Below, piece after piece: positions 5,887 to 31,091 of a stretch of DNA of 47,347 nt. The first letter of the stretch is position 1; each line of letters opens with the position of its first letter. The DNA is taken from the IMG/VR virus record IMGVR_UViG_2737471835_000007; one strand, given 5' to 3'. The position numbers and the translations under genes are program-made. The notes beneath the pieces were generated by a model. The model saw only the letters and a list, made by a program, of their open reading frames with translations, was not told the DNA's origin and did no database searches. The DNA is from a virus (lineage: Duplodnaviria; Heunggongvirae; Uroviricota; Caudoviricetes).

Positions 5887-7096
5887 ACTTGTTAACTTGA
5901 ACCTGTGATGCCACTGTCGAAAAATAGGAATAGGTATCGCCATAAACCAGGCTTGTGTCTTTTGCCGGAAGAACAATATGACCATTAATGCCAATGCTCA
6001 CACTGATTGTTGAGATCAACGTCGCATCAACCAGCAACCTGACAGAACTGGTAAAAATATCCTGGATACGCAGAAGATTTATCGGGTGTCCGACTTCAAT
6101 TGAATTGATGTAATCAGCAACGTTTTGCTGCACAGCCATAGCAATACCCGCCGGATCAACATAATCATCAGACACCGTGTTCCAGGTGATTAGCACCATG
6201 ACGTTTTGTGATGACGGGATAACGAACGGCACCTGATAAACGTCCGGCGAAACGGTTATTGAAACCGTGCGTTTTTCCACTGCCGCACCGGATGGATTGC
6301 TTACATCGTTGGTCAGTTTCGAAATATCCGGTACAGATTTGTAAATCGCATAAGCCACATCATACGGATCACCGCCACCAACAACCGCAACCCATTTCCC
6401 CAGCGACGACTGCCGGAAAGAAATCAGGTTTTCTCGCACACCGCTTACTGATTTGAGCATCGCTTTATAGCAATCCGGTGTTCCCTGCACACCAAACATA
6501 CCGGACTCCATGACTTCGGCGCGGTAAGATGCCCACGTCTGCGCCTCCTGACCTGGCATCCCTGCGGTAAGGTTCGTGCATTTTACAGGCTGGTCTTTTG
6601 GTACTGAGGTAATAACCTGCGTCACAGTCCCTTCCGGTACAGCCCATGAGCCTGACGTTGTGGCCACACAGTAGACTGGTTCAGTCTGCCCACTTTCCGG
6701 CACCACCGTATCGCGGGAAACTGCATACTGGTAGTTGCCATCACCGACAACAAATCCTTTAGGGATACCAAACCCCGGCAACGCCTCAAATACCACGTAT
6801 ACCGCCGTATTTGTACTTAATCCCTTCTGTGCTCCATAAATGTTTCCGAGTTGCATCAGTAACGGAATATTTGCGCCGTATGGGCTTACGGAGTTAATAA
6901 GGTCCACCCGCGCCTGGTCTATTAATGCCAGCGCCCCGACTGCCGTGCTGGCAAGGTCAGTAATAAGCCCCGCCGGAAGGTTGGCTGTATATCCAGGTAC
7001 TTTTTCAGCAACTCTGATGATAAGATTTGCAAGCAAATCATTGGGTGGCGTAGGCTGCGCCCCCGCACTGGTCATAGTAATTGGTATTTCTGACAT
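5870..7096 (-). CDS. baseplate J-like protein
   Basis: 408 aa, size and position typical of baseplate J/gp47-like proteins; GGAG ribosome-binding site before the ATG at 7096. Confidence 0.6.
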   Translation of the reverse strand: MSEIPITMTSAGAQPTPPNDLLANLIIRVAEKVPGYTANLPAGLITDLASTAVGALALIDQARVDLINSVSPYGANIPLLMQLGNIYGAQKGLSTNTAVYVVFEALPGFGIPKGFVVGDGNYQYAVSRDTVVPESGQTEPVYCVATTSGSWAVPEGTVTQVITSVPKDQPVKCTNLTAGMPGQEAQTWASYRAEVMESGMFGVQGTPDCYKAMLKSVSGVRENLISFRQSSLGKWVAVVGGGDPYDVAYAIYKSVPDISKLTNDVSNPSGAAVEKRTVSITVSPDVYQVPFVIPSSQNVMVLITWNTVSDDYVDPAGIAMAVQQNVADYINSIEVGHPINLLRIQDIFTSSVRLLVDATLISTISVSIGINGHIVLPAKDTSLVYGDTYSYFSTVASQVQVNKYAISD

Positions 7097-7108
7097 ATTT
7101 ACTCCATT

Positions 7109-7134
7109 AAAAAACCCGCTTTCGCGGGTTTTTT
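7109..7134. terminator. bidirectional intrinsic terminator
   Basis: AAAAACCCGC-TTTC-GCGGGTTTTTT: perfect 6-bp GC stem flanked by A-run and T-run, 3 nt downstream of the moron stop and just upstream of the J-like start. Confidence 0.7.
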
Positions 7135-7136
7135 AC

Positions 7137-8297
7137 TTATTCAACCTCTTCTAAACTGCTCACTCTGGACCCTCGGCGGAAATTATCATCATTTTTAACA
7201 TACTCGTATGAATCCAGAATCAAACCAGATATGCGAAGTATATCTTCCGGATTAGTTATATGTATCCTTTTACCATCCGTATCAAGTCGAGCTCGTCTTA
7301 TTTCATTCAACTGAACTTCACTAAGCGAAATAGGTAAAGTTATAAATGAAGATTTTTTATCATAAAATCTTAACAGCCATCTATTAGTTTTACCATTCAA
7401 TAGCACACCAAAATATGACTCAGTATCTTTATATTCTATATTATCTTCTGTTTGTATGATTTGTTTTACCCTTTCAAATAGCTCCAATTCTTTGGCTGTG
7501 GTTATTATGTTGGGGTTTTCTTCATCAACAATGGCGTTATTAACTTGTGTATCCGTTGCATCATTTTCTTTAGTTTGCTCTACCGGTTGTGTAGATAGCC
7601 CGGAAACCACCATTGCGCTAACAGCGCGCTCAACGGCCTGTTTAACTAATGGAGTCACGAACTCAAGAAATCTCTGATTAAGTTGTCTCTCAATATTTGA
7701 ACGACTAGCAACATATCGAACAAACTCCAGATCAACTTCACGAAGACTAGAACTGATTGTTTTAGTAAATGAATTCAAATAAACACTTTCTTCAGCCAGT
7801 GTCCGTAAAGCCTCTGGTTTGAATTTATCATAACGAAAACGAAATAATTGTGTAATATCGGAGTGAGTTAGAGAATCCATTCTTATTTTTAAAAACGGCG
7901 TTGAATCCATTATGTTTTTTTGTTTCAAATCCGTAAAAAAACGCCATTCAACACCATTTGTAATGGCTGATATAGTAACTTCCGGTGTTGAATTAAAATA
8001 TCTTGATAGCTGTGGGCAGTGATTATCAATTTGTTCTGAAAACGATTTCGCCTCAATGAACATCACAGGAACATCATGACAAAATAAAGCGTAATCAACC
8101 CGTTCATTAGCCTTAACCCCGGGGAAGTCAGCACTATACTCAGCTTTGACTTTTCTTGGATCATACGGAGTAAAACCAAGAATATCTAGTAATGGCATAA
8201 TGAGTGCTTGTTTTGTCGTTTCTTCAGTTGTACAAAACACCCCCATTTTTGCAACATGCTCTGTGTGTATTTTTAACTTATTTGCAAAATTTTCCAT
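7137..8297 (-). CDS. PD-(D/E)xK nuclease-domain protein (type I restriction enzyme HsdR N-terminal-like), moron in tail module
   Basis: 386 aa from MENFANK (GGAGGAG ribosome-binding site). N-terminal ...ERVDYALFCHDVPVMFIEAKS...NGVEWRFFTD matches the D...(D/E)xK core of HsdR-N-like nucleases; C-terminal ~200 aa unassigned. Locally AT-rich, with its own upstream region and terminator. Confidence 0.7.
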   Translation of the reverse strand: MENFANKLKIHTEHVAKMGVFCTTEETTKQALIMPLLDILGFTPYDPRKVKAEYSADFPGVKANERVDYALFCHDVPVMFIEAKSFSEQIDNHCPQLSRYFNSTPEVTISAITNGVEWRFFTDLKQKNIMDSTPFLKIRMDSLTHSDITQLFRFRYDKFKPEALRTLAEESVYLNSFTKTISSSLREVDLEFVRYVASRSNIERQLNQRFLEFVTPLVKQAVERAVSAMVVSGLSTQPVEQTKENDATDTQVNNAIVDEENPNIITTAKELELFERVKQIIQTEDNIEYKDTESYFGVLLNGKTNRWLLRFYDKKSSFITLPISLSEVQLNEIRRARLDTDGKRIHITNPEDILRISGLILDSYEYVKNDDNFRRGSRVSSLEEVE

Positions 8298-8312
8298 GCT
8301 TGTCTCCTCCAT

Positions 8313-8446
8313 GGTAACAATATGTATTTTGCAAATCCGAAATAATATATGTCAATATGCTCCAGCTTAGAAAATTACTCGCCCCCCTAAAATATCTCTC
8401 TACAGCACTCCAAACCAAGGTAAAAGTTTTATCATAAAACTGTGAT
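8313..8446 (-). promoter_or_regulatory. AT-rich upstream region of the moron gene, putative promoter
   Basis: 134-bp AT-rich spacer; consensus TTGACA hexamer on the minus strand at 8355-8350; no convincing -10 identified. Confidence 0.35.
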
Positions 8447-8794
8447 TCATACCGGCACCTGCGTCCGGTAACTGGTCCCATTAAAAAACACAACATCGAT
8501 GTTATAGGTGGGGTTATCTGCTCCATCTACCTTTGAAATTGCCAGTGATGCAAAATACCCAGCAAACTGTTGCTGAACCATGTTCACATAGTAGTCTGGG
8601 TAAATCTGCTGCACGATGCACTGCTGTGCAGGAATACCGTAATTCGCGTAAAACGGCGACTCCCCCAATCCCAGCTTTAACGTCTGAATGAGCGTCGTCA
8701 GCCAGCCGTAGGAGAAATCACCGTTGGCGTCAGATTCTACTGCAACCCATTTTTTGTTGCCGTTCGCGTCGGTGACGCGGCCCCATGTTCTCAT
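8447..8794 (-). CDS. putative baseplate protein (gpW/gp25-like position)
   Basis: 115-aa ORF between the spike-like and J-like genes; assignment by size and position only. Confidence 0.45.
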   Translation of the reverse strand: MRTWGRVTDANGNKKWVAVESDANGDFSYGWLTTLIQTLKLGLGESPFYANYGIPAQQCIVQQIYPDYYVNMVQQQFAGYFASLAISKVDGADNPTYNIDVVFFNGTSYRTQVPV

Positions 8795-8994
8795 CGTGCC
8801 CCCATCACTTTAACTAACTCTGTCAGTACTGGTGAAAAGGCAAATGCTAAAGCTACGAGTGCAGCGGTGTAATACATGCGTCGTAAGGTATTGCTTTTTG
8901 CCACTAATTTTAAGGCTTTCACAATCCAGTCTCCTCCGCTAAAATTAATCACGGAAGACCTCCAAACATACGTAATCATCCCTTGCGTATTCAA
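8791..8994 (-). CDS. small hypothetical protein with C-terminal hydrophobic segment
   Basis: 67-aa ORF whose stop overlaps the next start (ATGA coupling); segment YYTAALVALAFAFSPVL; true start uncertain. Confidence 0.3.
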   Translation of the reverse strand: MNTQGMITYVWRSSVINFSGGDWIVKALKLVAKSNTLRRMYYTAALVALAFAFSPVLTELVKVMGAR

Positions 8995-9003
8995 GGTGAG
9001 AAA

Positions 9004-9043
9004 CAGAAAACCCCGACTGGGCCAACAGTCGGGGTTTTCGTTT
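9004..9043. terminator. bidirectional intrinsic terminator downstream of spike gene
   Basis: CCCCGACTG-GGCCAA-CAGTCGGGG followed by TTTTCGTTTT; A-rich on the other side. Confidence 0.65.
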
Positions 9044-9076
9044 TATGGTCAGAATTTAAAGTGAAATGAACCGGTA

Positions 9077-9790
9077 TTAACCAGGATTTGGTTTCTTCGA
9101 CGTAATCGTGCTGCTGCCGCTTTGAACACCAGTCACATCGTGGCTGTGGCCGCTGACGCTCACGCCGTTGATAACTGCATCCATCTCGACATTAAGAGGA
9201 CCAATCAGCGAAGCGGTTGTATCCTTCATCTGGGCTTTGTCCTGGACGATCGGTCCATTGAGGTGAATTTTCCCGTTCAGGAAAATATCTTCGGCCTCGA
9301 GGTAAACAGCTTTCGACTTTTGCCTGATTTCTTCCAGAGCCACCATTACCGAGCTACTGCCGTCCTCTGTTTTGAGGATCGCGCCATCCGGACCGTACAA
9401 AACGATTTTTTGCGGATCTTCGTCGGACCACTCCTTGTTTGCCAATGGCACGAAAAACAGGGGAGTGAGCGACATCGAGTAAGAAAGCGTTGCCATACCG
9501 GTTCCCAATCCGGACACACCGCGCAGTGATACATCAGCGGCAATTGTTACTCCTCGATCGCCCGGCTGTATCGGGTAACGGATATACGGGAATGTGGCGA
9601 CAGGGATTGTTATCTGCGGGAAGTTGATCCCCTCCGGCAGCATATCAAACTGAACTGTCACTATTTGCCCGCAGATATCGACAACATGGCAGGGCAATTC
9701 GCGGCCTTTAAGCTCGGCTTGCTGGTTACCAGAACTGGTCATCATCTCCGACAGTGTTCGGAGAAACGGTAATTTTTGAGCGTTTGACAT
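9077..9790 (-). CDS. baseplate central spike protein (gpV-like)
   Basis: 237 aa; C-terminal VSGHSHDVTG HxH-type motif as in spike apex domains; position after hub-like gene. Confidence 0.55.
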   Translation of the reverse strand: MSNAQKLPFLRTLSEMMTSSGNQQAELKGRELPCHVVDICGQIVTVQFDMLPEGINFPQITIPVATFPYIRYPIQPGDRGVTIAADVSLRGVSGLGTGMATLSYSMSLTPLFFVPLANKEWSDEDPQKIVLYGPDGAILKTEDGSSSVMVALEEIRQKSKAVYLEAEDIFLNGKIHLNGPIVQDKAQMKDTTASLIGPLNVEMDAVINGVSVSGHSHDVTGVQSGSSTITSKKPNPG

Positions 9791-21589: not shown

Positions 21590-22403
21590 GTTTGCCCTTC
21601 TCCGTTAAAAATTCGTCGGGTAGTTTCTGAGGGGCGTAGATCGGCAGAGCATCGCAACTGCAATAAACCTCCTCCCCGGCAGCAGTGATTTCGTCATAAA
21701 AACCATATACGGGCTTAATAAGCCCCTGCTCCAGCGCCCACGAATCGCGGAGGAGATAAATTTTCTCGTCGCGCTCTTTGTGGTCCTGTCGGTATTTGTA
21801 GCCCGGACGCCGCCAGTTAGAATGCCAGCGCAGAGCAATCGCACCACTCTGAACAGCCAGCAGATACTTAACGTTGCTCGCCAGCTTATGTCCCTGGTCA
21901 ATTGCCACCCGGCGACTGATAAAATCCATATCCTTCACGGACTTCTGAAAACCGGACTTCACTTCCCGGCGATCAATTTCGCTCACCCCGTCAGGCGGAA
22001 TGGACGTAACCCATCCCTGAAAACGCTGTATGGTTTTCTCGATAGCCTGTTCGCGGTTGAGTTTTATCAGGTTGGCACTGGCGAAAATTCGCCTGTCGAG
22101 TTCCTTGCGAAACTCAGGTTTCAGTTTTTCAACAGTGATTTTTTTAGGGCCGTCAGGAGGCTGATCCCGTAATGCCCCGCCGTCGATGACAAGACGGCTG
22201 TAGATAGCGGTGAGATGTTTTCTGGCTACGGTATCATCAGGGGTTTCTCGCTGAGCGGCTACACGGAGTTTCCGGCACCATTCGAGCAATGATTTTTCGC
22301 TATCCCACCCGTGATTTACGTAGTAGTTAACGGCATCCGTCAGAACCTCATACAGCGTCCTGATCCGTTTCTTCTTCCTCCCCGCCCGGCTGGAAATTGC
22401 CAT
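21570..22403 (-). CDS. head morphogenesis / minor head protein
   Basis: ORF following portal; start set at MAISSRAG with AGGAG ribosome-binding site; overlaps portal 3' end. Confidence 0.5.
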   Translation of the reverse strand: MAISSRAGRKKKRIRTLYEVLTDAVNYYVNHGWDSEKSLLEWCRKLRVAAQRETPDDTVARKHLTAIYSRLVIDGGALRDQPPDGPKKITVEKLKPEFRKELDRRIFASANLIKLNREQAIEKTIQRFQGWVTSIPPDGVSEIDRREVKSGFQKSVKDMDFISRRVAIDQGHKLASNVKYLLAVQSGAIALRWHSNWRRPGYKYRQDHKERDEKIYLLRDSWALEQGLIKPVYGFYDEITAAGEEVYCSCDALPIYAPQKLPDEFLTEKGKREFNRA

Positions 22404-23787
22404 CAGGCGTCTCCTGCTTCGGTGGTTCATAATTCGCCAGGGCGTCCACATCAATGATGAGTGGAGCTTCGCCATAGGTCTGCGTGGCATTAACAAGGCT
22501 TGCCAGCCATTCAGTGACGGCGGCACGGTTTTCAGGATCAACCTGTAGCGACACGGCAGAGAAAAGTGCTATCGCCTGTTGAATCACTTTACTGTCGCTT
22601 TCCCGGCGTTTGTCCGGCGACTCCTCCACCAGCTCCTGCCACGTCGCGGTAAACTCGCGCCGCCACTGGTAAAACGTGGTTTTATAGTCCTCGGTTATGA
22701 TGTCCGGGTAATCATTTTTCAGCGACTGATAAAATTCCTCGTTCCAGGCGATGTACTGCACCAGGCGTTCGAAATAATCCATCACAGGTTCAATCTGCTG
22801 GCGTACACCATCGATATACTGGCTGATGGCTTTCGAGTCCTCGGTTCCTTCACCGAAACCATTCGAGAAAGCCTCCTCCTTGATGAGAATCGCGGGAACA
22901 TCGCTACCTGATGCAATATCGGAAATAATGTTGTCGCGGGCGGCATTTAGCGCGCCATCGATGTTTTGTAAATTCAGCGAGGTAACGTCCTCATCCTTCC
23001 CGATACTAAGCACACCTTTATTTTTTGCCTCTTTGACATTTTCCCTTTTTCGTCCCGTGGCGGCAGCCATGATCCCGTCAAGTTTCGAACCATACTGCAC
23101 AACTTTAGCCACCAGCACGCCAGCCTTCTGGCTGACGAGATCATTCGCCTCCATCGTATTGATATAGGATTTCAGGGAATAAAGAACGCGCTGAAACACG
23201 CTTCGCCCGGTGAATCCGAACGATGAACTCTGAAACTCCAGATAAATCGGTGTGCCATTGAAAATTTTCAGTGTGCGTGACGGATGCCAGTCTTTTCCGC
23301 CAATCTTCAGCTTTTTATTGGCTTCCTGGAAAAACGGGCTGTTTGGGTTCTGGTCAGTCACCATCGAACCAGAAGCGTTCAACGGGTCCCACGCGTTGAT
23401 ATACACATCATCTTCTGTCAGTCCGAATGTCGGAAGCGGCTCACGACATGGAACACTGTCGGTGCCCACGCCGATCGCTGCGGCACCGTAGCAACGAGAC
23501 AGAAAAAACAGATTTTTAATCTTCTCGTTAACCTTCATACGTTCCCATACCTCCTGGAAACGCCGCACAACCCGCTCGTCAGGGTCTGTCTCCACGTTGT
23601 ACTGACGCGGCTTACACATCGCCATAAGTATGGGTTTTTCGACAAGTTTTCCGCCCAGAGGATGGAATTGCCACAGCTGCTTACACAATTCATAGCCAAT
23701 GTCGGTTCCCGGCTGAATTTCTTCAGCCTCAAGAATATGCATCAGTGCTGAACCGAGGCCGCCAGTAATCTCGATCTCTGCCATCAA
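22348..23787 (-). CDS. portal protein
   Basis: 479 aa directly after terminase large subunit, acidic C-terminus. Confidence 0.75.
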   Translation of the reverse strand: MMAEIEITGGLGSALMHILEAEEIQPGTDIGYELCKQLWQFHPLGGKLVEKPILMAMCKPRQYNVETDPDERVVRRFQEVWERMKVNEKIKNLFFLSRCYGAAAIGVGTDSVPCREPLPTFGLTEDDVYINAWDPLNASGSMVTDQNPNSPFFQEANKKLKIGGKDWHPSRTLKIFNGTPIYLEFQSSSFGFTGRSVFQRVLYSLKSYINTMEANDLVSQKAGVLVAKVVQYGSKLDGIMAAATGRKRENVKEAKNKGVLSIGKDEDVTSLNLQNIDGALNAARDNIISDIASGSDVPAILIKEEAFSNGFGEGTEDSKAISQYIDGVRQQIEPVMDYFERLVQYIAWNEEFYQSLKNDYPDIITEDYKTTFYQWRREFTATWQELVEESPDKRRESDSKVIQQAIALFSAVSLQVDPENRAAVTEWLASLVNATQTYGEAPLIIDVDALANYEPPKQETPDGNFQPGGEEEETDQDAV

Positions 23788-23801: not shown

Positions 23802-25130
23802 TTACAACTCCGCGTAATTACCGTGCGCGATGATCAATCCATAGGTGTAACAATCGAAAAGGTCATCAGCACGTTTATGCGCGTCTTTATCCGCCAGGTG
23901 GAATCCGGCGATTTGTTTTATGAGGTGGTTTGCGGTGGTGCGCTTGAATGAAACGGTCTTGTCGTAAGCCTCCCGGACGATTTTGCACATCCCCTGATAG
24001 TGGTAGCTGGATGCCATCACCGCCCGTTCGTCTTTGCCCTTGCTGGTTAGTGCCGATTTAATCGGCGTCATATCCCAGCCTTCGGTTTCCGCCTTCTGGT
24101 TGAGGATTGCCCCCATCGCGGCGTCTTCCATAAAAATTCCCTGGCTGCCCAGACGCGGACGGCATAATTTCGCGAGGCGCTCAAGGTTGTCATAAACGCC
24201 GGGGATATATTCAGGAAGCAATGACGCTTTAATTTGCGTAACATCCCAGTCAATAATCGTCAGTTTTGGCTCTTCCGAATACGTTGACTCATAAGCGAAA
24301 TACAACACGCCAGTACCATCATTTTCGGTCCCGCCTTTCAGCGCCGTATCCATCACTGCGAAAATCATGTCGCAGTACGGCGGCATCTCAATCGGCTGAC
24401 CGTCCACCAGCAGCTTATCGACATCGAGTAACGCGTCTTTGGACCAGTCCACGAACTCGGCAAGATATTCCTGCTGCCAGACGCGCGGATCGGATTTCTT
24501 CTCCGTTTCCTCCAGTTCTTCTTTCGGAATATACGGATTCGATGAAGTTGGCGCATGGTGCATGACAAATCCCAGGGATTCATCGTGGCATATCGCGTAG
24601 AAAAAATTGCTCTCGTCGATACCGTTTGGTGTGGAAAATACCCACGCACAGCCGCGGTAATCGACAAGCGTCGGGCGTATAGCTCGGGGCCAGATTTCCT
24701 CGAGCATTTCCGGCGATTTAGTGAATGCTGCCTCATCAATCAGCACAGCGTGATATTTACGCCCACGCCCGGCCAGTTTGTTATTGTCCGTTACCCAAAA
24801 GTCGATGCGCCCCCCATTACGGAGAATAATGCGCTTTTCATTTTTTGACTGGCTGAGGATCAGCGGTTGCAGAACGGCGCTAATTTCATCCCAGATTTCC
24901 TGGTACTGGCGGTATTGTGCGGTAAAAATCCCCACCCTACCCGCGATAAGTTGCCCGGTGGTAGGAACGGCAAATTTCCGCGTAGCGAAACTGGTAGCGA
25001 TGTTTACCAGCATCACCGTTTTACCCCAGCGACGACCACAGCATACCGCGTGGAAGCGTTCCTCTATTGCCGCCGTCCATGCAGCTATTTGCCCCTCATG
25101 AGGTTTTGGGAGGTAGATTTCAATCGACAT
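23802..25130 (-). CDS. terminase large subunit
   Basis: Walker A-like CCGRRWGKT and Walker B-like AVLIDEAAF; 442 aa. Confidence 0.85.
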   Translation of the reverse strand: MSIEIYLPKPHEGQIAAWTAAIEERFHAVCCGRRWGKTVMLVNIATSFATRKFAVPTTGQLIAGRVGIFTAQYRQYQEIWDEISAVLQPLILSQSKNEKRIILRNGGRIDFWVTDNNKLAGRGRKYHAVLIDEAAFTKSPEMLEEIWPRAIRPTLVDYRGCAWVFSTPNGIDESNFFYAICHDESLGFVMHHAPTSSNPYIPKEELEETEKKSDPRVWQQEYLAEFVDWSKDALLDVDKLLVDGQPIEMPPYCDMIFAVMDTALKGGTENDGTGVLYFAYESTYSEEPKLTIIDWDVTQIKASLLPEYIPGVYDNLERLAKLCRPRLGSQGIFMEDAAMGAILNQKAETEGWDMTPIKSALTSKGKDERAVMASSYHYQGMCKIVREAYDKTVSFKRTTANHLIKQIAGFHLADKDAHKRADDLFDCYTYGLIIAHGNYAEL

Positions 25131-26211
25131 TATCCACTCCCGGCATCGGCAGAGAGTTGTGGATAATTATTTCGTTATTCTCACCACCCACGCCTTTTTT
25201 GAGGTTTTCAATCTCAGTGCGCAGCTTTTCGTTGCGAAGCCTCAGTCCTTCAAGCTCCAGATCATTGCGACTGTCAGTTGCACCACCAGCAGAACTTCCT
25301 TTCGTCGCCATTATCAGCTTGATAAGTTCGCGCCGGGCGGCAGCCTTATCCTCCAGCAGGATCTCAACACCAAATTTCCCGAGCTTTGCCCCTGCATATA
25401 ATTGTCGCGCATCCCCATCAAGCAGAGTGGTATCAGCCATATAAAGCTGTCCCGTTCCCTCACCGCAGCACTTCGGACAATCCGGATTGGGTATGGCGTT
25501 ATCAACAAAGCCGAGGCCTCCATATTCCGGCTCGGGTTTGCCATCTCTGGAGGCCTGTGCCGCTGCCTTATCGAATTCTGCAATATCACGCCACTGGTAG
25601 AGATGATTCTCGCCCCAGCAATAACGGCAGTTAACACGGCGAAATTGTGCCAACTGATTGGGGTCGGCCTGGACAATAGCCATCAACTGACTCACCAGTA
25701 AATCCAGGTCTGCGGTATAGCGTTTCTGATACTGATTGCGGAAGTAGCTGATAGCACGATAAACCCTGGCATTTCTAAGCATACGGCTGGCGTTGCTGTT
25801 AGCTGTCGCACCTTGCCCCTCATAACCAGCCAGTCGGTATGCCTCTGTCGGCTTTTTCCCCTGAGCAACAAGCATCGCAAACTTAGCCTGCTGGTCAGAA
25901 ATGCCGAATTCATCGGGGCAGAACGAAAATTCCTCCGCGTCGCCCTCATTCAGGCACGCATCGGATACTGGCTTTTTTTTCTGAGATTTTCCGTTCCGCT
26001 TTTGCGCAGTCTGCGCAGATTTTTTCTGCGCACTTTGTTGCGCAGTTTTGCGCATTTCTGTCTGCGCATTTTTCGGAGGTTTTTTGATGTAACGACGGGC
26101 TGTTGCGTAATTCAGTCCCCTTGCCTCACACCATGCCACCGGAGATACACCGGAGCGGGTGTATTCAGCAATATATTCCTGCTGCAACGCCCCCCAGTCC
26201 GGTCTGCTCAT
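25120..26211 (-). CDS. terminase small subunit
   Basis: N-terminal HTH; MLVAQGKKPTEAYRLAGYEG...SRMLRN motif of small terminase family; Cys-rich zinc-ribbon-like segment. Confidence 0.6.
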   Translation of the reverse strand: MSRPDWGALQQEYIAEYTRSGVSPVAWCEARGLNYATARRYIKKPPKNAQTEMRKTAQQSAQKKSAQTAQKRNGKSQKKKPVSDACLNEGDAEEFSFCPDEFGISDQQAKFAMLVAQGKKPTEAYRLAGYEGQGATANSNASRMLRNARVYRAISYFRNQYQKRYTADLDLLVSQLMAIVQADPNQLAQFRRVNCRYCWGENHLYQWRDIAEFDKAAAQASRDGKPEPEYGGLGFVDNAIPNPDCPKCCGEGTGQLYMADTTLLDGDARQLYAGAKLGKFGVEILLEDKAAARRELIKLIMATKGSSAGGATDSRNDLELEGLRLRNEKLRTEIENLKKGVGGENNEIIIHNSLPMPGVDNVD

Positions 26212-26214
26212 TAG

Positions 26215-26424
26215 TTAGTCCTGATTTTTATCCACCCTGAGTAGTTCACGCAGGGCAAAGGCATCCCCTTTTCTGGCAAGCTTAAACAATGCCGCCCGTA
26301 GTTCGGCTTCACCTTTCGCTCTGCCCTTACGGATGGATGCGTAAAAATCTGTCATTGCTTCCCGATTTTCTTTCAGTCGGTTCAGATCAACATCCAGAAC
26401 GTCAGCGATTTGTTGTGCAGTCAT
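26215..26424 (-). CDS. small putative DNA-binding protein
   Basis: About 70-83 aa ORF between DxD enzyme gene and small terminase; start uncertain. Confidence 0.4.
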   Translation of the reverse strand: MTAQQIADVLDVDLNRLKENREAMTDFYASIRKGRAKGEAELRAALFKLARKGDAFALRELLRVDKNQD

Positions 26425-27334
26425 CCGGCACGCTGCCAGAGACTCGACTTTCGAATACGGAATCATTTGTCACCCCCATTGATATGCAGGGTGTCTTCTT
26501 CCTGTATTTTTCGTGAAGGATTTTTACTGCAGCGTTGTTCCAAGTGACCTGATGGTGAATGCGTTTATGGCTGGCCCCCATCAGTGAGATTTTTACGCAC
26601 GAGGGCGCATACATGACGGAGTAAAAACTTTTAACGTAGGTTCCGGAATCCAGATACAGCTCGGTCATTCCGCCGCTGTTTTTCTGCGTCTGTTTCTGCC
26701 CTAACTGGACAGCACCGATCGTCATAAACAATTCACCACAGCGACCGAGATTCGTGTACGTATTCACATCCTCGTTAATGCGCCCCATGAATGAGAACGG
26801 TCGATCAACCGAACAGATAAAGCTGTTCATTGCCTTGCGTTTCACCCACGAAGCATGGCCGCCATTGTCACCAAGAAAATCCCCGCCCTGCGACATAGCG
26901 ATGGAAAGCGCAGGTATTGATTCGTAGTACGCCAGCATTTCAGAAAGGATCGCATCCAGTTTTCTTATCGGGAAATAGGCCTGGTCATAGTTGCGATCCA
27001 CCCGAAACTGGAACTCGTGATAATCATCATCGAGCTGAATGAAGTATTTACACCCGACCAGTTTTGCCAGGTCGAAACAGGCATTACGGGCGTAAAAAAT
27101 TGAGCGGCGATCACCGAAATTATCGGCTTCGTCAAAACGACTGGCTATATCGGCTTTGGAAAACACCAGCACCTGTTCACCAAATTCAACTATGTACTGA
27201 TGCCGTGTCTTATCTTCATCATCAACAACGATAAAAATTTTCCCGGTATAGCCAGCACGACGCAACGTCCGGTAAGTCAGAACTTTGTCCGGTCGCCCGT
27301 GAGTCAGAATAAAGGCGCAAAAATCATCACGCAT
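26402..27334 (-). CDS. hypothetical enzyme with DxD-like motif (possible nucleotide-sugar transferase fold)
   Basis: Start at MRDDFCAF with GGAGGAGG ribosome-binding site; motif FIQLDDDYHEF; translationally coupled to the ParB-like gene. Confidence 0.55.
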   Translation of the reverse strand: MRDDFCAFILTHGRPDKVLTYRTLRRAGYTGKIFIVVDDEDKTRHQYIVEFGEQVLVFSKADIASRFDEADNFGDRRSIFYARNACFDLAKLVGCKYFIQLDDDYHEFQFRVDRNYDQAYFPIRKLDAILSEMLAYYESIPALSIAMSQGGDFLGDNGGHASWVKRKAMNSFICSVDRPFSFMGRINEDVNTYTNLGRCGELFMTIGAVQLGQKQTQKNSGGMTELYLDSGTYVKSFYSVMYAPSCVKISLMGASHKRIHHQVTWNNAAVKILHEKYRKKTPCISMGVTNDSVFESRVSGSVPDDCTTNR

Positions 27335-28115
27335 ATTCCTCCTCCCCGCCATGCATGATCTCCACCATGTGCTGCGTCATCCGGACAAATCCATTTTCAA
27401 TAGCCTGCTGATAATCAATGATCACCAGCGCCGACTCCTCAAAAAGGCGCTGAATTTCAGCGGGGGCGTGAGCGTAATAATCCGCAATTCTGCTGAAATT
27501 AAACACCGTGTGGCGTTCTGCCGCGCACAGGAGGAATTTTTCGATATCAGGCTCAAGGGACGCCGAACGTATCCGGCTGATCAGCTCCTGAGTTTTCGTA
27601 TCGTCGTACAGTTCACTGATATCCGGTTTATCGCCCGACGGCTCATAAACAGGCGTATCAATTTTCGTCGTATACTGCTCCTCCTCATTTCCGGTACCTG
27701 GCAAAACTTCCATCAACAGTTCATCAATTTCTGTTGGGCTGAATCCTGTCAGGGAGATATCAAAATCAGCATTGATTAGCTCCGACAGTTCCACCCGTAA
27801 CAGTTCTTCATCCCAGCCAGCGTTGAGCGGCAGGCGATTATCTGCCAGGCGGTACGCCTTTTTCTGATCATCCGTCAGGCCAGACAGAACAATGACCGGA
27901 ACAGAATCCATTTTGAGCACCTCAGCCGCCATCACGCGACCGTGACCAGCAATAATTTCGCCCTTTTCGTCAATCAGCACCGGATTGGTCCAGCCGAATT
28001 GCTTAATGCTTTCTACCAGTTGTGCCACCTGCTCAGGGCTGTGTGTCCTGGCGTTGTGCGCATACGGAGACAGTTTTTGCAACGGGCGATAGACGATCTT
28101 CAATTTCTCGCTCAT
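27327..28115 (-). CDS. ParB-like nuclease domain protein
   Basis: N-terminal ...LSPYAHNARTHSPEQVAQLVESIKQFGWTNPVLIDE...IIAGHGR matches ParB/Srx-type N-terminal domain. Confidence 0.75.
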   Translation of the reverse strand: MSEKLKIVYRPLQKLSPYAHNARTHSPEQVAQLVESIKQFGWTNPVLIDEKGEIIAGHGRVMAAEVLKMDSVPVIVLSGLTDDQKKAYRLADNRLPLNAGWDEELLRVELSELINADFDISLTGFSPTEIDELLMEVLPGTGNEEEQYTTKIDTPVYEPSGDKPDISELYDDTKTQELISRIRSASLEPDIEKFLLCAAERHTVFNFSRIADYYAHAPAEIQRLFEESALVIIDYQQAIENGFVRMTQHMVEIMHGGEEEYA

Positions 28116-30118: not shown

Positions 30119-30862
30119 TTATTCTTGAGTAACACTTAAACTCATCTCATTGAATGCAGCCATCCTGTAACCTGCCGGTGTAACACCAAAATAACTCCTG
30201 AATACGCTGATAAAATAAGATGTAAAATTATAGCCGCACTGAGCAGCGATTCTGTTGATGGCGCAACGAGATTGATTCAACAGCATTGCTGCCATTCTCA
30301 TTCTCTCTGTAAGCAACAACTCACTGAAACAGGTGCCTTCTTCTTTCAGTCTTTTTTTTAACAAACTTTCACTGATACATAACCGCGAAGACACATCTCT
30401 CAGAGTCCAGTTTGCTGCAATGTCCGTACGAAACAATGCACTAAGCCTGTCACTAATATTGCTAATACACGCGGTCAGAAACGACGAAAACATCTTCTCT
30501 GATGAGAAAAACGCCAGACACGAAAAGGAAAGCATTTCCGCTAAATTGTCCGTATGAATCTTTTCCTCACAAAGATAATCAATCAGGATGCCCATCAATT
30601 CTGCCTTCGGAAAACTCACGCAAAGATATCGTGGTATTTGCCGGACTAAAACTACATCCTGTTTTTCGTCTCCACACAACAGGTAACGGCTAATTGTCGA
30701 TTCACTGAGACTTATTCGCCGAAAACATTCCGAAAAGGGCAATAACGATCCAGCTCCCCCCCTGACAAGAAGTGCACTACCACTTTCAAGAGAGAGCTCT
30801 TTTCCTTCAAAGAGCACAACAAACGGGGAATGAACAAAAACAACAGAACAGGCTTCATTCAT
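30119..30862 (-). CDS. AraC-family transcriptional regulator, AppY-like
   Basis: 247 aa from MNEACSVVF; C-terminal AraC HTH ...WTLRDVSSRLCISESLLKKRLKEEGTCFSELLLTERMRMAAMLL...QCGYNFTSYFISVFRSYFGVTP resembles AppY as recalled. Confidence 0.8.
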   Translation of the reverse strand: MNEACSVVFVHSPFVVLFEGKELSLESGSALLVRGGAGSLLPFSECFRRISLSESTISRYLLCGDEKQDVVLVRQIPRYLCVSFPKAELMGILIDYLCEEKIHTDNLAEMLSFSCLAFFSSEKMFSSFLTACISNISDRLSALFRTDIAANWTLRDVSSRLCISESLLKKRLKEEGTCFSELLLTERMRMAAMLLNQSRCAINRIAAQCGYNFTSYFISVFRSYFGVTPAGYRMAAFNEMSLSVTQE

Positions 30863-30982
30863 ATCAATTGCCCTGACATTACTGGTCACAAGATAAGTAT
30901 ATATCGATTTACAAAAATACAAGCCGAAAGACCAGTATTCGCAACCACCAGCACGTTTTATGTTCTCTGCCGTTTTTCGGAC

Positions 30983-31008
30983 ATAAAAAACCCGCTCAAT
31001 GGCGGGTT
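30983..31008 (-). terminator. tR'-like intrinsic terminator downstream of Q
   Basis: Minus strand AACCCGC-CATTGA-GCGGGTT followed by TTTTTAT, between Q-like gene and the AppY-like gene. Confidence 0.6.
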
Positions 31009-31091
31009 GTATCAAAGTTCATGCGCTTGGTTCACCTCGCGATACAGCTTTGCGAAGCTTAGCAAAATTGAAGCGGTTTATGCGTAAAAAA

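Follow-up and report, generated by a model that had tools for sequence, protein, structure and literature searches.

What do two overlapping genes in front of the terminase genes of an E. coli prophage encode, and on what do their products act? The question is raised by a 47,347-nucleotide stretch of viral DNA (Caudoviricetes; IMG/VR record IMGVR_UViG_2737471835_000007), the whole of which is called the window in what follows. The genes lie on the minus strand of a Rac-type (Rac-like) lambdoid prophage of E. coli. Several complete genomes match the 1.9-kb stretch of the pair at 100% identity, and positions 6215-33346 of the window are 99.4% identical to one of them. A preliminary description had pointed out a 262-residue ParB-like protein and a 310-residue protein with an LDDDY motif between positions 26402 and 28115; both open reading frames (ORFs) were confirmed, and their matches to known families lie far beyond chance. 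By family and fold the 310-residue protein is a glycosyltransferase, the other is its obligate companion, and we see an even chance that together they form a late-expressed DNA glycosyltransferase of the phage.

The enzyme and its companion

The glycosyltransferase gene (GT; 26402-27334, minus strand; 'GREB1-related protein' in RefSeq) encodes 310 amino acids. The product matches the Pfam family of TET-associated glycosyltransferases (TAGT, PF20691) over profile positions 4-205 of 205 (E 2.4e-34; 119.5 bits, cut-off 27.5) and phrog_842 (E 2e-102). Its AlphaFold2 (AF2) model has a GT-A fold (pLDDT 77, pTM 0.77). The best PDB matches of this model in Foldseek are the GT-A enzymes AvpGT, chondroitin polymerase, ColGalT1, GalNAc-T2, SunS/ThuS and SpsA, glycogenin being another structural neighbour, and the best viral matches are TAGT-domain proteins (E 1e-27, TM 0.77-0.85). 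Searching the PDB by sequence with the GT profile gave nothing meaningful. A disordered loop of GT, residues 218-232, is also conserved. From the alignment of homologues, LDDDY (residues 101-105; 27020-27034, minus strand) is the DxD motif for metal and nucleotide-sugar. Among 58 homologues R14, DDEDK (38-42), D102-D104 and E188-D189 are conserved, D102 in 98% and both D103 and D104 in 100% of the sequences. The active-site pattern of phage GT-A DNA glycosyltransferases is R...DDD...ED(Y/F) (bioRxiv 10.1101/2023.12.21.572611); R14, D102-D104 in LDDDY, and E188-D189 fit it and are all intact. Judged from sequence and model, GT appears to be the catalytic subunit, a GT-A DxD-type TAGT enzyme with the active-site motifs of its family in place. 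The earlier suspicion of a nucleotide-diphospho-sugar transferase-like fold, drawn from LDDDY, is borne out by Pfam, AF2 and Foldseek. The profile and structure searches that had been proposed for both proteins returned TAGT GT-A and ParB_N folds, not an unrelated fold.

Two side observations concern GT and its family. In E. coli GT carries a C-terminal tail of about 25 residues (KTPCISMGVTNDSVFESRVSGSVPDDCTTNR; window 26402-26480) that is absent from all other lineages; it is predicted to be disordered, and its coding DNA overlaps the start of the next ORF. Long members of the family are fusions (P0270, P0309, P0318, P0286, P0248, P0251, P0268), of which the types recognised by eye are a P-loop (Walker A) kinase-like domain with TAGT, TAGT with a sulfotransferase-like domain, TAGT with a SAM methyltransferase, and TAGT with a second glycosyltransferase. 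Fusions of ParB and GT, which could have indicated an interaction, were not present among the 150 best representatives of the GT family.

GT has at least 8000 relatives in the database. It matched 1327 clusters at 50% identity, 489 of them with E ≤1e-30. Genomes or metagenome-assembled genomes (MAGs) assigned to Bacteroidota, Firmicutes, Actinobacteria, Desulfobacterota, Planctomycetes, Chlorobi, Ignavibacteria and Saccharibacteria contain sequences 46-60% identical to it. Cultured phages that infect Lactobacillus, Nocardia, Vibrio and Porphyromonas have the gene as well, as does the haloarchaeal virus HHTV-2. The full pair is present in 867 of 5426 complete E. coli genomes; the strains W, KO11FL, LY180, APEC O1 and 042 have it at 97% identity.

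GT directly follows a homologue of the upstream gene, here called the partner, in each of the scorable loci, which number about 60 and come from more than 10 bacterial phyla and an archaeal virus. In a set of 54 diverse loci the partner homologue lies immediately upstream on the same strand in all 54, as a single intact ORF in 51 and in two ORF fragments in three; one GT ORF of this set is cut by the contig end. The stop of the partner and the start of GT overlap by 11 nt in 27 loci and by 8 nt in 18, across phyla. Nearly all overlaps are of 8, 11, 14 or 17 nt (junctions in L002-L136), so that relative to the partner the frame of GT is always +1. The overlap is conserved because the N-terminus of GT, MRDD, is conserved and its codons contain TGA in the frame of the partner. 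Downstream of the pair are the genes for the small and large terminase subunits, the latter from at least five unrelated TerL families, which makes the pair a mobile cassette placed at the start of packaging operons. The synteny check of the pairing that the preliminary description had proposed thus gave co-conservation in all scorable loci. On this comparison of gene order and sequence the partner appears to be an obligate companion of GT that co-evolves with it.

The junction in the window (27327-27347, minus strand) has the same organisation. The partner stops at a TGA at 27327-27329, GT starts at an ATG at 27332-27334, and a strong Shine-Dalgarno sequence, GGGGAGGAGGA, lies 5' of this start at 27337-27347. 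The 8-nt overlap is ATGCGTGA, preceded by GGAGGAGG, and the junction reads GGGGAGGAGGAAT-ATG-CGT-GA. The GT frame is open from 27352 (316 aa); the second ATG gives the 310-residue protein and is the start used in RefSeq. Translational coupling, which had been proposed earlier together with the strong ribosome-binding site, is therefore plausible, and since the genes overlap both proteins are probably made together. Upstream of the pair lie lysis genes and the region of a Q-type antiterminator. No sigma-70-like promoter candidate was found 5' of the pair, so that it seems to belong to the late operon. A search for a moron promoter, from which the prophage could express the two genes, likewise found none.

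The partner gene (27327-28115, minus strand; 262 aa; in RefSeq 'ynaK, ParB/Srx family N-terminal domain-containing protein') matches ParB_N (PF02195) with 28.8 bits (cut-off 26.3; E 1.3e-6) and phrog_620 with E 8e-88. Alignment and column counts delimit a ParB/Srx NTP-binding domain with a helix-helix segment at residues 1-135 (27711-28115). It is followed by a linker, residues 136-165 (27621-27710), placed by pLDDT and motif conservation and predicted to be disordered, with pLDDT below 50 at residues 136-160. Residues 166-262 (27330-27620) form an acidic helical C-terminal domain, which is recognised from stand-alone homologues and conservation and is modelled by AF2 at low confidence.

The linker contains the motif Y148-T/S149-x-K151-x3-P155-x-Y157-x-P159...P164. 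All 55 partner sequences, proteins consisting of the C-terminal part only included, have Y148, P155 and Y157, and R201, Y214, E226 and D234 are also invariant in this set. The match of the 139-aa ORF that precedes GT in Vibrio phage pv27 is confined to positions 136-247 of the partner profile (E 7e-44). When residues 145-262 were used as query, more than 400 proteins were found; most among the matches listed are stand-alone proteins of 112-142 aa, and the six whose genes were looked up are all encoded directly upstream of a TAGT, with a radical-SAM gene in between in one of them. Over 45 loci the mean pairwise identity is 53% for GT, 49% for the linker and C-terminal domain and 30% for the ParB domain, and the divergence of the C-terminal domain tracks that of GT more closely (Spearman 0.45) than does that of the ParB domain (0.18). 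Within the ParB domain, conservation of at least 93% is limited to N21, G57, N93 and D102. The stand-alone forms and the conservation pattern therefore point to a functional core of GT and a small acidic subunit. The conserved core of the partner appears to be the linker motif with the acidic helical C-terminal domain, and the ParB domain, added in many of the temperate phages and prophages examined, appears dispensable. This was missed in the preliminary description.

Some neighbours of the stand-alone pairs deserve mention in their own right. On a contig of a lytic-type phage (L134) the stretch 7001-9203 holds a gene for a 338-aa radical-SAM enzyme between the stand-alone partner gene and the TAGT, which could provide an alternative route for making an acceptor or for tailoring the sugar. 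A gene for the DNA polymerase III beta sliding clamp lies beside two of the six stand-alone pairs (L134, 9478-10563; L135, 5891-6988). The ParB domain is itself a clamp-forming fold. Speculatively, the module may need some DNA clamp, possibly either the sliding clamp or the ParB domain.

In Foldseek the N-domain of the AF2 model of the partner, which holds the added ParB domain, matches Noc, ParB, PadC and KorB (E 2e-6 to 1e-5), but the match to TIGR00180 (36.7) is under the cut-off of 58.45. Its residues 1-141 correspond to the N-terminus of ParB-DNA methyltransferase fusions: the MTase_II model of PADLOC is matched over residues 8-146 (E 4.6e-38), the N-terminal region matches phrog_498, a family of ParB-DNA methyltransferase fusions (E 1.9e-51), and in tblastn the domain is 45-59% identical to annotated DNA methylases from phages of Psychrobacter, Ruminococcus, Gardnerella, Pseudomonas and Streptococcus. 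A methyltransferase match was not obtained for residues 142-262. By these similarities the domain appears to belong to a subfamily otherwise fused to phage DNA methyltransferases. In Psychrobacter phage pOW20-A a ParB_N and N6_N4_Mtase fusion lies directly before terS and terL, in the same slot as the pair. Fusion to methyltransferases is frequent among phage ParB-fold proteins, which can bind CTP, ATP or GTP (PMC12704722).

As an observation beside this, Escherichia phage vB_EcoM-613R2 has two other ParB-domain genes before its terminase (L141, 646-2642 and 3935-5076). One encodes a 196-aa protein that is 63% identical to the ParB domain of the partner and is followed by a 183-aa ORF of no known kind; the other, annotated as ParB (207 aa), is followed by a gene for a 457-aa protein with ParB_N and a class-I methyltransferase, annotated as 'nuclease'. 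The slot before the terminase thus hosts several combinations of ParB with an enzyme.

The key residues of the domain are N21, R23, G57-H58-G59-R60 and D92-N93. The AGHGR segment of the partner aligns with AGERR of Mx and Hp ParB, with the catalytic Glu of GERR replaced by His; this position is His or Asn in 46 of 47 partner sequences. G57 is kept in 46 of 47, R60 in 40 of 47 and R23 in 41 of 46, and N21 and N93 are present in all sequences that have the nucleotide-binding domain (NBD). Going by these residues, NTP binding seems plausible and hydrolysis doubtful. The preliminary label of a ParB-like nuclease is not supported: the profile searches of the partner matched the ParB/Srx NTP-binding fold and no nuclease family, and the label is a historical one.

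Since the fold binds nucleotides, it could be argued that GT glycosylates a nucleoside or nucleotide signal, a cofactor or RNA as an anti-defence measure, with the ParB fold as the nucleotide-binding part. The residues that contact the NTP are largely kept (N21, N93, R23, R60), and the best structural match of GT in the PDB is the nucleoside glycosyltransferase AvpGT with Ara-A, but the TM-score of that match is low (0.46) and reflects general GT-A similarity only. The ParB domain is missing from many pairs, so its nucleotide binding cannot be essential to the chemistry. Apart from the methyltransferase N-domain no PADLOC model was matched by either protein. We consider such a target quite improbable.

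The database names 'chromosome (plasmid) partitioning protein' and 'ParB-like nuclease' invite yet another explanation, namely two unrelated accessory genes: a partition or nuclease ParB and a glycosyltransferase that modifies the envelope (seroconversion) or is expressed from the prophage in defence. O-antigen modification is common for prophage glycosyltransferases, and these have been raised as possible anti-phage factors (bioRxiv 10.1101/2023.12.21.572611). Synteny contradicts this, with strict adjacency and a conserved overlap in phages of Gram-negative and Gram-positive hosts and in an archaeal virus. Pfam detected neither a helix-turn-helix (HTH) nor a ParB C-terminal dimerisation domain in the partner, and no ParA-type ATPase in the window; the pair is also inside the late operon, where a promoter of its own was not found. 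This option is highly improbable, and the names 'partitioning protein', 'beta-glucosyl-HMC-alpha-glucosyltransferase' and 'ynaK partial' are misleading and should be corrected.

The last of these names has its own history. In a genome that is 100% identical here (L001, 21644-21901; window 27858-28115) RefSeq lists a partial pseudogene, 'ynaK ... incomplete; missing C-terminus', where the ORF in the window is intact at 262 aa. This call seems to be driven by the 87-aa YnaK of K-12, whose gene corresponds to only the first ~85 residues of the partner, an N-terminal remnant; K-12 lacks GT. The neighbouring K-12 gene ydaY was considered as a remnant of GT and rejected, as it has no similarity.

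The acceptor of the sugar

The reading that we prefer, with chances that we would call evenly divided, is that the pair is a two-subunit, late-expressed phage DNA glycosyltransferase. GT would take a nucleotide-sugar from the host and glycosylate replicated phage DNA just before packaging, and the partner would activate GT or position it on double-stranded DNA. The role of the partner would be like that of the ParB-like protein lacking a DNA-binding domain that activates phage thymine dioxygenases; a phage protein of this kind, with an NBD and a C-terminal domain (CTD), is required for the dioxygenase to act on double-stranded DNA (dsDNA) (PMC13229309). The ParB domain would give NTP-controlled engagement with DNA, and the sugar-modified DNA would be protected from host nucleases.

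A link to DNA is the best-supported reading, and we infer it from several sources. The ParB domain is of the methyltransferase-fusion type. The stand-alone pairs of partner and TAGT sit in replication modules and next to DNA methylases; methylases are near the pair in loci L136 and L138, and in L136 a C5 cytosine methyltransferase is encoded two genes upstream of it. Finally, the characterised TAGT-type enzymes mostly act on DNA, as do the phage GT-A enzymes for 5-hydroxymethylcytosine (5hmC), the T6 enzyme and the kinetoplastid glucosyltransferase JGT. GT sequences remain 46-60% identical from one host phylum to another and in an archaeal virus, which favours a universal acceptor, for example DNA, over a host-specific protein. 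The accessory genes beside some pairs would suit the assembly of a tailored glycan on a polymer. They encode an NDP-sugar epimerase/dehydratase and a sugar-phosphate nucleotidyltransferase on a Virgibacillus plasmid (L103), a TAGT-methyltransferase fusion and a second TAGT in L124, two TAGTs and a phosphatase/cytidylyltransferase in L135, and two GT4 enzymes, a PIG-L deacetylase and a methyltransferase in L137.

Several points weigh against an action on DNA. Ordinary DNA bases carry no hydroxyl group. In every sugar-modified phage DNA that we know of, from T-even phages to the metagenomic methyltransferase/TET/GT clusters, an enzyme makes the hydroxylated base first. Enzymes of this type did not appear around the pair, as far as Pfam-level detection and deposited annotation go. 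A Pfam scan that spanned the prophage from the integrase gene to the tail genes lists no TET/JBP protein, thymidylate-synthase homologue or DNA methyltransferase among the other ~50 ORFs of the window, with 25 of 26 matched families listed for one half. Neither TET/JBP nor the thymidylate-synthase (ThyS) family is among the matches listed, the first 25 families of each set, for 246 flanking ORFs of about 47 of the 54 diverse loci, nor in the full Pfam lists of 11 loci (9 distinct neighbourhoods). The complete 38-kb genome of Lactobacillus phage phi jlb1, where the pair precedes terS and terL and the unnamed non-structural ORFs are all below 120 aa, is annotated without either of them. The partner is strongly acidic (net charge about -23, pI 4.6) and has no recognisable DNA-binding domain. 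GREB1, which has a TAGT domain, glycosylates a protein and not DNA, and an experiment on the present TAGT clade was not found in the literature searched. The preliminary proposal of a DNA-modification module is thus upheld by the TAGT family and the methyltransferase-type ParB domain, and is not matched by an enzyme for hydroxymethyl-pyrimidines or by a DNA-binding domain in the acidic partner.

Two versions of an action on DNA can be distinguished. In the conventional pathway GT would act on 5hmC or 5-hydroxymethyluracil (5hmU), with the enzyme for the hydroxymethyl base encoded elsewhere or too divergent to be recognised. The TAGT family name and all characterised phage members speak for it, as does the C5 cytosine methyltransferase of L136, and thousands of 5mYOX-like sequences carry no TET/JBP annotation in Pfam (PMC13229309). 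Such an enzyme was seen neither in the prophage of the window nor in the flanks of the loci or the annotation of phi jlb1, by the Pfam matches listed. Hidden dioxygenases were also sought at relaxed thresholds beside the stand-alone pairs, and the candidates proved to be a DUF1376-like protein, the radical-SAM enzyme or sequences with no match. A thymidylate-synthase homologue is annotated in the 191-kb genome of Vibrio phage pv27, elsewhere and not beside GT. The conventional pathway seems improbable to us. Somewhat less so, if still rather unlikely, is that the pair glycosylates DNA without a hydroxymethyl-pyrimidine, on a canonical or merely host-methylated base, on the backbone or at the ends, with the acidic subunit supplying part of the acceptor site.

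The main rival to a DNA target is a protein target. The most economical candidate is the partner itself, through Y148, T/S149 and Y157, in a manner like that of glycogenin or of O-GlcNAc transfer; another phage or host protein could also serve. Nothing but the partner accompanies GT in every case, and two tyrosines in its linker, which is predicted to be disordered, are among its most invariant residues. GREB1 is a protein O-GlcNAc transferase, and among the structural neighbours of GT are the peptide and protein GT-A enzymes GalNAc-T2, the S-glycosyltransferases SunS and ThuS, ColGalT1 and glycogenin. The missing pathway to a DNA acceptor in the window, the flanks examined and the annotation of phi jlb1 would also be explained. 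However, the proline-rich pattern of 17 residues resembles a docking motif rather than a site that accepts sugar, and a protein target leaves unexplained both the fusion to a ParB domain of the DNA-methyltransferase type and the placement among replication genes and DNA methylases. Most characterised members of the TAGT family act on DNA. Glycosylation of a protein is unlikely in our view, though it is the first of the alternatives to be kept in mind.

Under either target, a large TAGT clade with a small partner of its own is carried by ordinary temperate phages. If DNA is modified, phages of the lambdoid type have an unrecognised layer of anti-restriction, and a new acceptor chemistry would be involved. 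If the sugar is placed on DNA without a hydroxymethyl-pyrimidine, the virion DNA of Rac-like prophages, in about one-sixth of the complete E. coli genomes, would be sugar-modified unnoticed, as would that of many phages of Bacteroidota, Firmicutes, Actinobacteria and haloarchaea. If a protein is modified, the pair would represent a new phage system of protein glycosylation related to GREB1.

Setting in the prophage

The pair had been placed just upstream of the terminase. It is indeed close to terS (25120-26211) and terL (23802-25130), both on the minus strand, assigned by profile matches and given here for context, but an 83-aa ORF (26215-26466, minus strand; 69 aa in RefSeq) lies in between, the only one between GT and these genes. 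It resembles the HTH part of the small terminase subunit (phrog_309, E 1.7e-22). This ORF was considered as a third component and rejected: its conservation is limited to enterobacterial relatives that share the terminase. The ORF is to be counted with the packaging module and not with the pair.

Four other ORFs of the window, all on the minus strand, may be noted. Between the region of the late-gene regulator and the holin genes is a 298-aa ORF (30119-31015, in DNA of lower GC, 0.43), whose RefSeq equivalent is a helix-turn-helix protein; one ORF in that part of the window matches an AraC-type HTH in Pfam. Directly after terL, in the portal position, a 479-aa ORF (22348-23787) is called 'anti-CBASS protein Acb1 family protein' in RefSeq. 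Phage_portal_3 is matched by one ORF in the half of the window that holds it, and the Acb1 name could be a wrong annotation, or the protein could be a fusion. A 391-aa ORF (7137-8312) in the baseplate and tail region has the RefSeq equivalent 'type I restriction endonuclease', and an HSDR_N domain was found in one ORF of the corresponding half of the window; it may be a defence or accessory gene inserted into the tail module. At the left edge a 468-aa trimeric autotransporter adhesin of the YadA type (247-1653, in AT-rich DNA with GC 0.36) carries YadA_head repeats and a YadA_anchor.

Comparison with known systems

The gene families concerned are already known and named, and dependence on a ParB-like protein is established for a dioxygenase, not for a glycosyltransferase. 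A description of the function of YnaK or of a pair of TAGT and ParB was not found in the papers covered. Nor did the literature searched describe a TAGT clade that is always partnered, a non-ParB core with an invariant linker motif, or the lack of association with TET or ThyS, which are new in this respect. Statistically, ParB annotations do co-occur with the genes of phage GT-A enzymes, and a 5mYOX or ThyS neighbour is missing from about 65% of GT contigs (bioRxiv 10.1101/2023.12.21.572611).

The nearest systems by family are the phage TAGT DNA glycosyltransferases, those of the MT/5mYOX/GT clusters and the beta-glucosyl-HMC-alpha-glucosyltransferase of T2 and T6. They share with GT the Pfam family, the GT-A fold, the R...DDD...ED pattern and the encoding by phages, and like the pair they are sometimes accompanied by second glycosyltransferases, epimerases and methyltransferases. 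Unlike them, the clade of the pair was not found beside a TET/JBP or thymidylate-synthase homologue in any locus examined, and it has an obligate partner protein of its own. The T-even enzymes were not retrieved with GT by tblastn at E 1e-5 and are only a distant structural match (rank 23); the PHROG-derived name beta-glucosyl-HMC-alpha-glucosyltransferase (phrog_842) is therefore not transferable to GT. Moreover, the T2/T6 enzyme needs a genome of hydroxymethylcytosine (hmC) DNA (dCMP hydroxymethylase, alpha/beta-GT), whereas the prophage of the window has no such Pfam match. JGT and the glycosyltransferase domain of vertebrate GREB1 belong to the same TAGT/GT-A superfamily. JGT needs 5hmU made by JBP, GREB1 is a cytoplasmic multidomain protein of 1949 aa that O-GlcNAcylates ER-alpha, and neither has a ParB-like partner.

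On the side of the partner, the partition proteins ParB, Noc and KorB share the ParB-CTPase fold, the arginine of GxxR and the Box-III asparagine; the partner differs in having no HTH and no ParA, in the change of the GERR Glu to His or Asn, and in its strong acidity. In the ParB_N-DNA methyltransferase fusions (phrog_498, MTase_II) the ~140 N-terminal residues are of one subfamily with those of the partner (45-59% identity), and the gene has the same slot before terS and terL. The partner has no methyltransferase domain; its ParB domain is joined to the domain that associates with GT, and the catalytic protein is separate.

A parallel in organisation is the ParB-dependent thymine dioxygenase 5mYOX176/ParB176 (O'Toole et al., PNAS 2026, PMC13229309). 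Its ParB-like protein has, like the partner, an NBD, a helix-helix segment, an unstructured linker and a CTD and no DNA-binding domain; the ParB-like gene adjoins that of a DNA-modifying enzyme, and such clusters are often near terminase genes (PMC13229309). In the present pair the enzyme is a GT-A glycosyltransferase and not a 5-methylpyrimidine dioxygenase, and the conserved core of the partner is the C-terminal part, which is also found without a ParB domain, the two systems being likened here by description.

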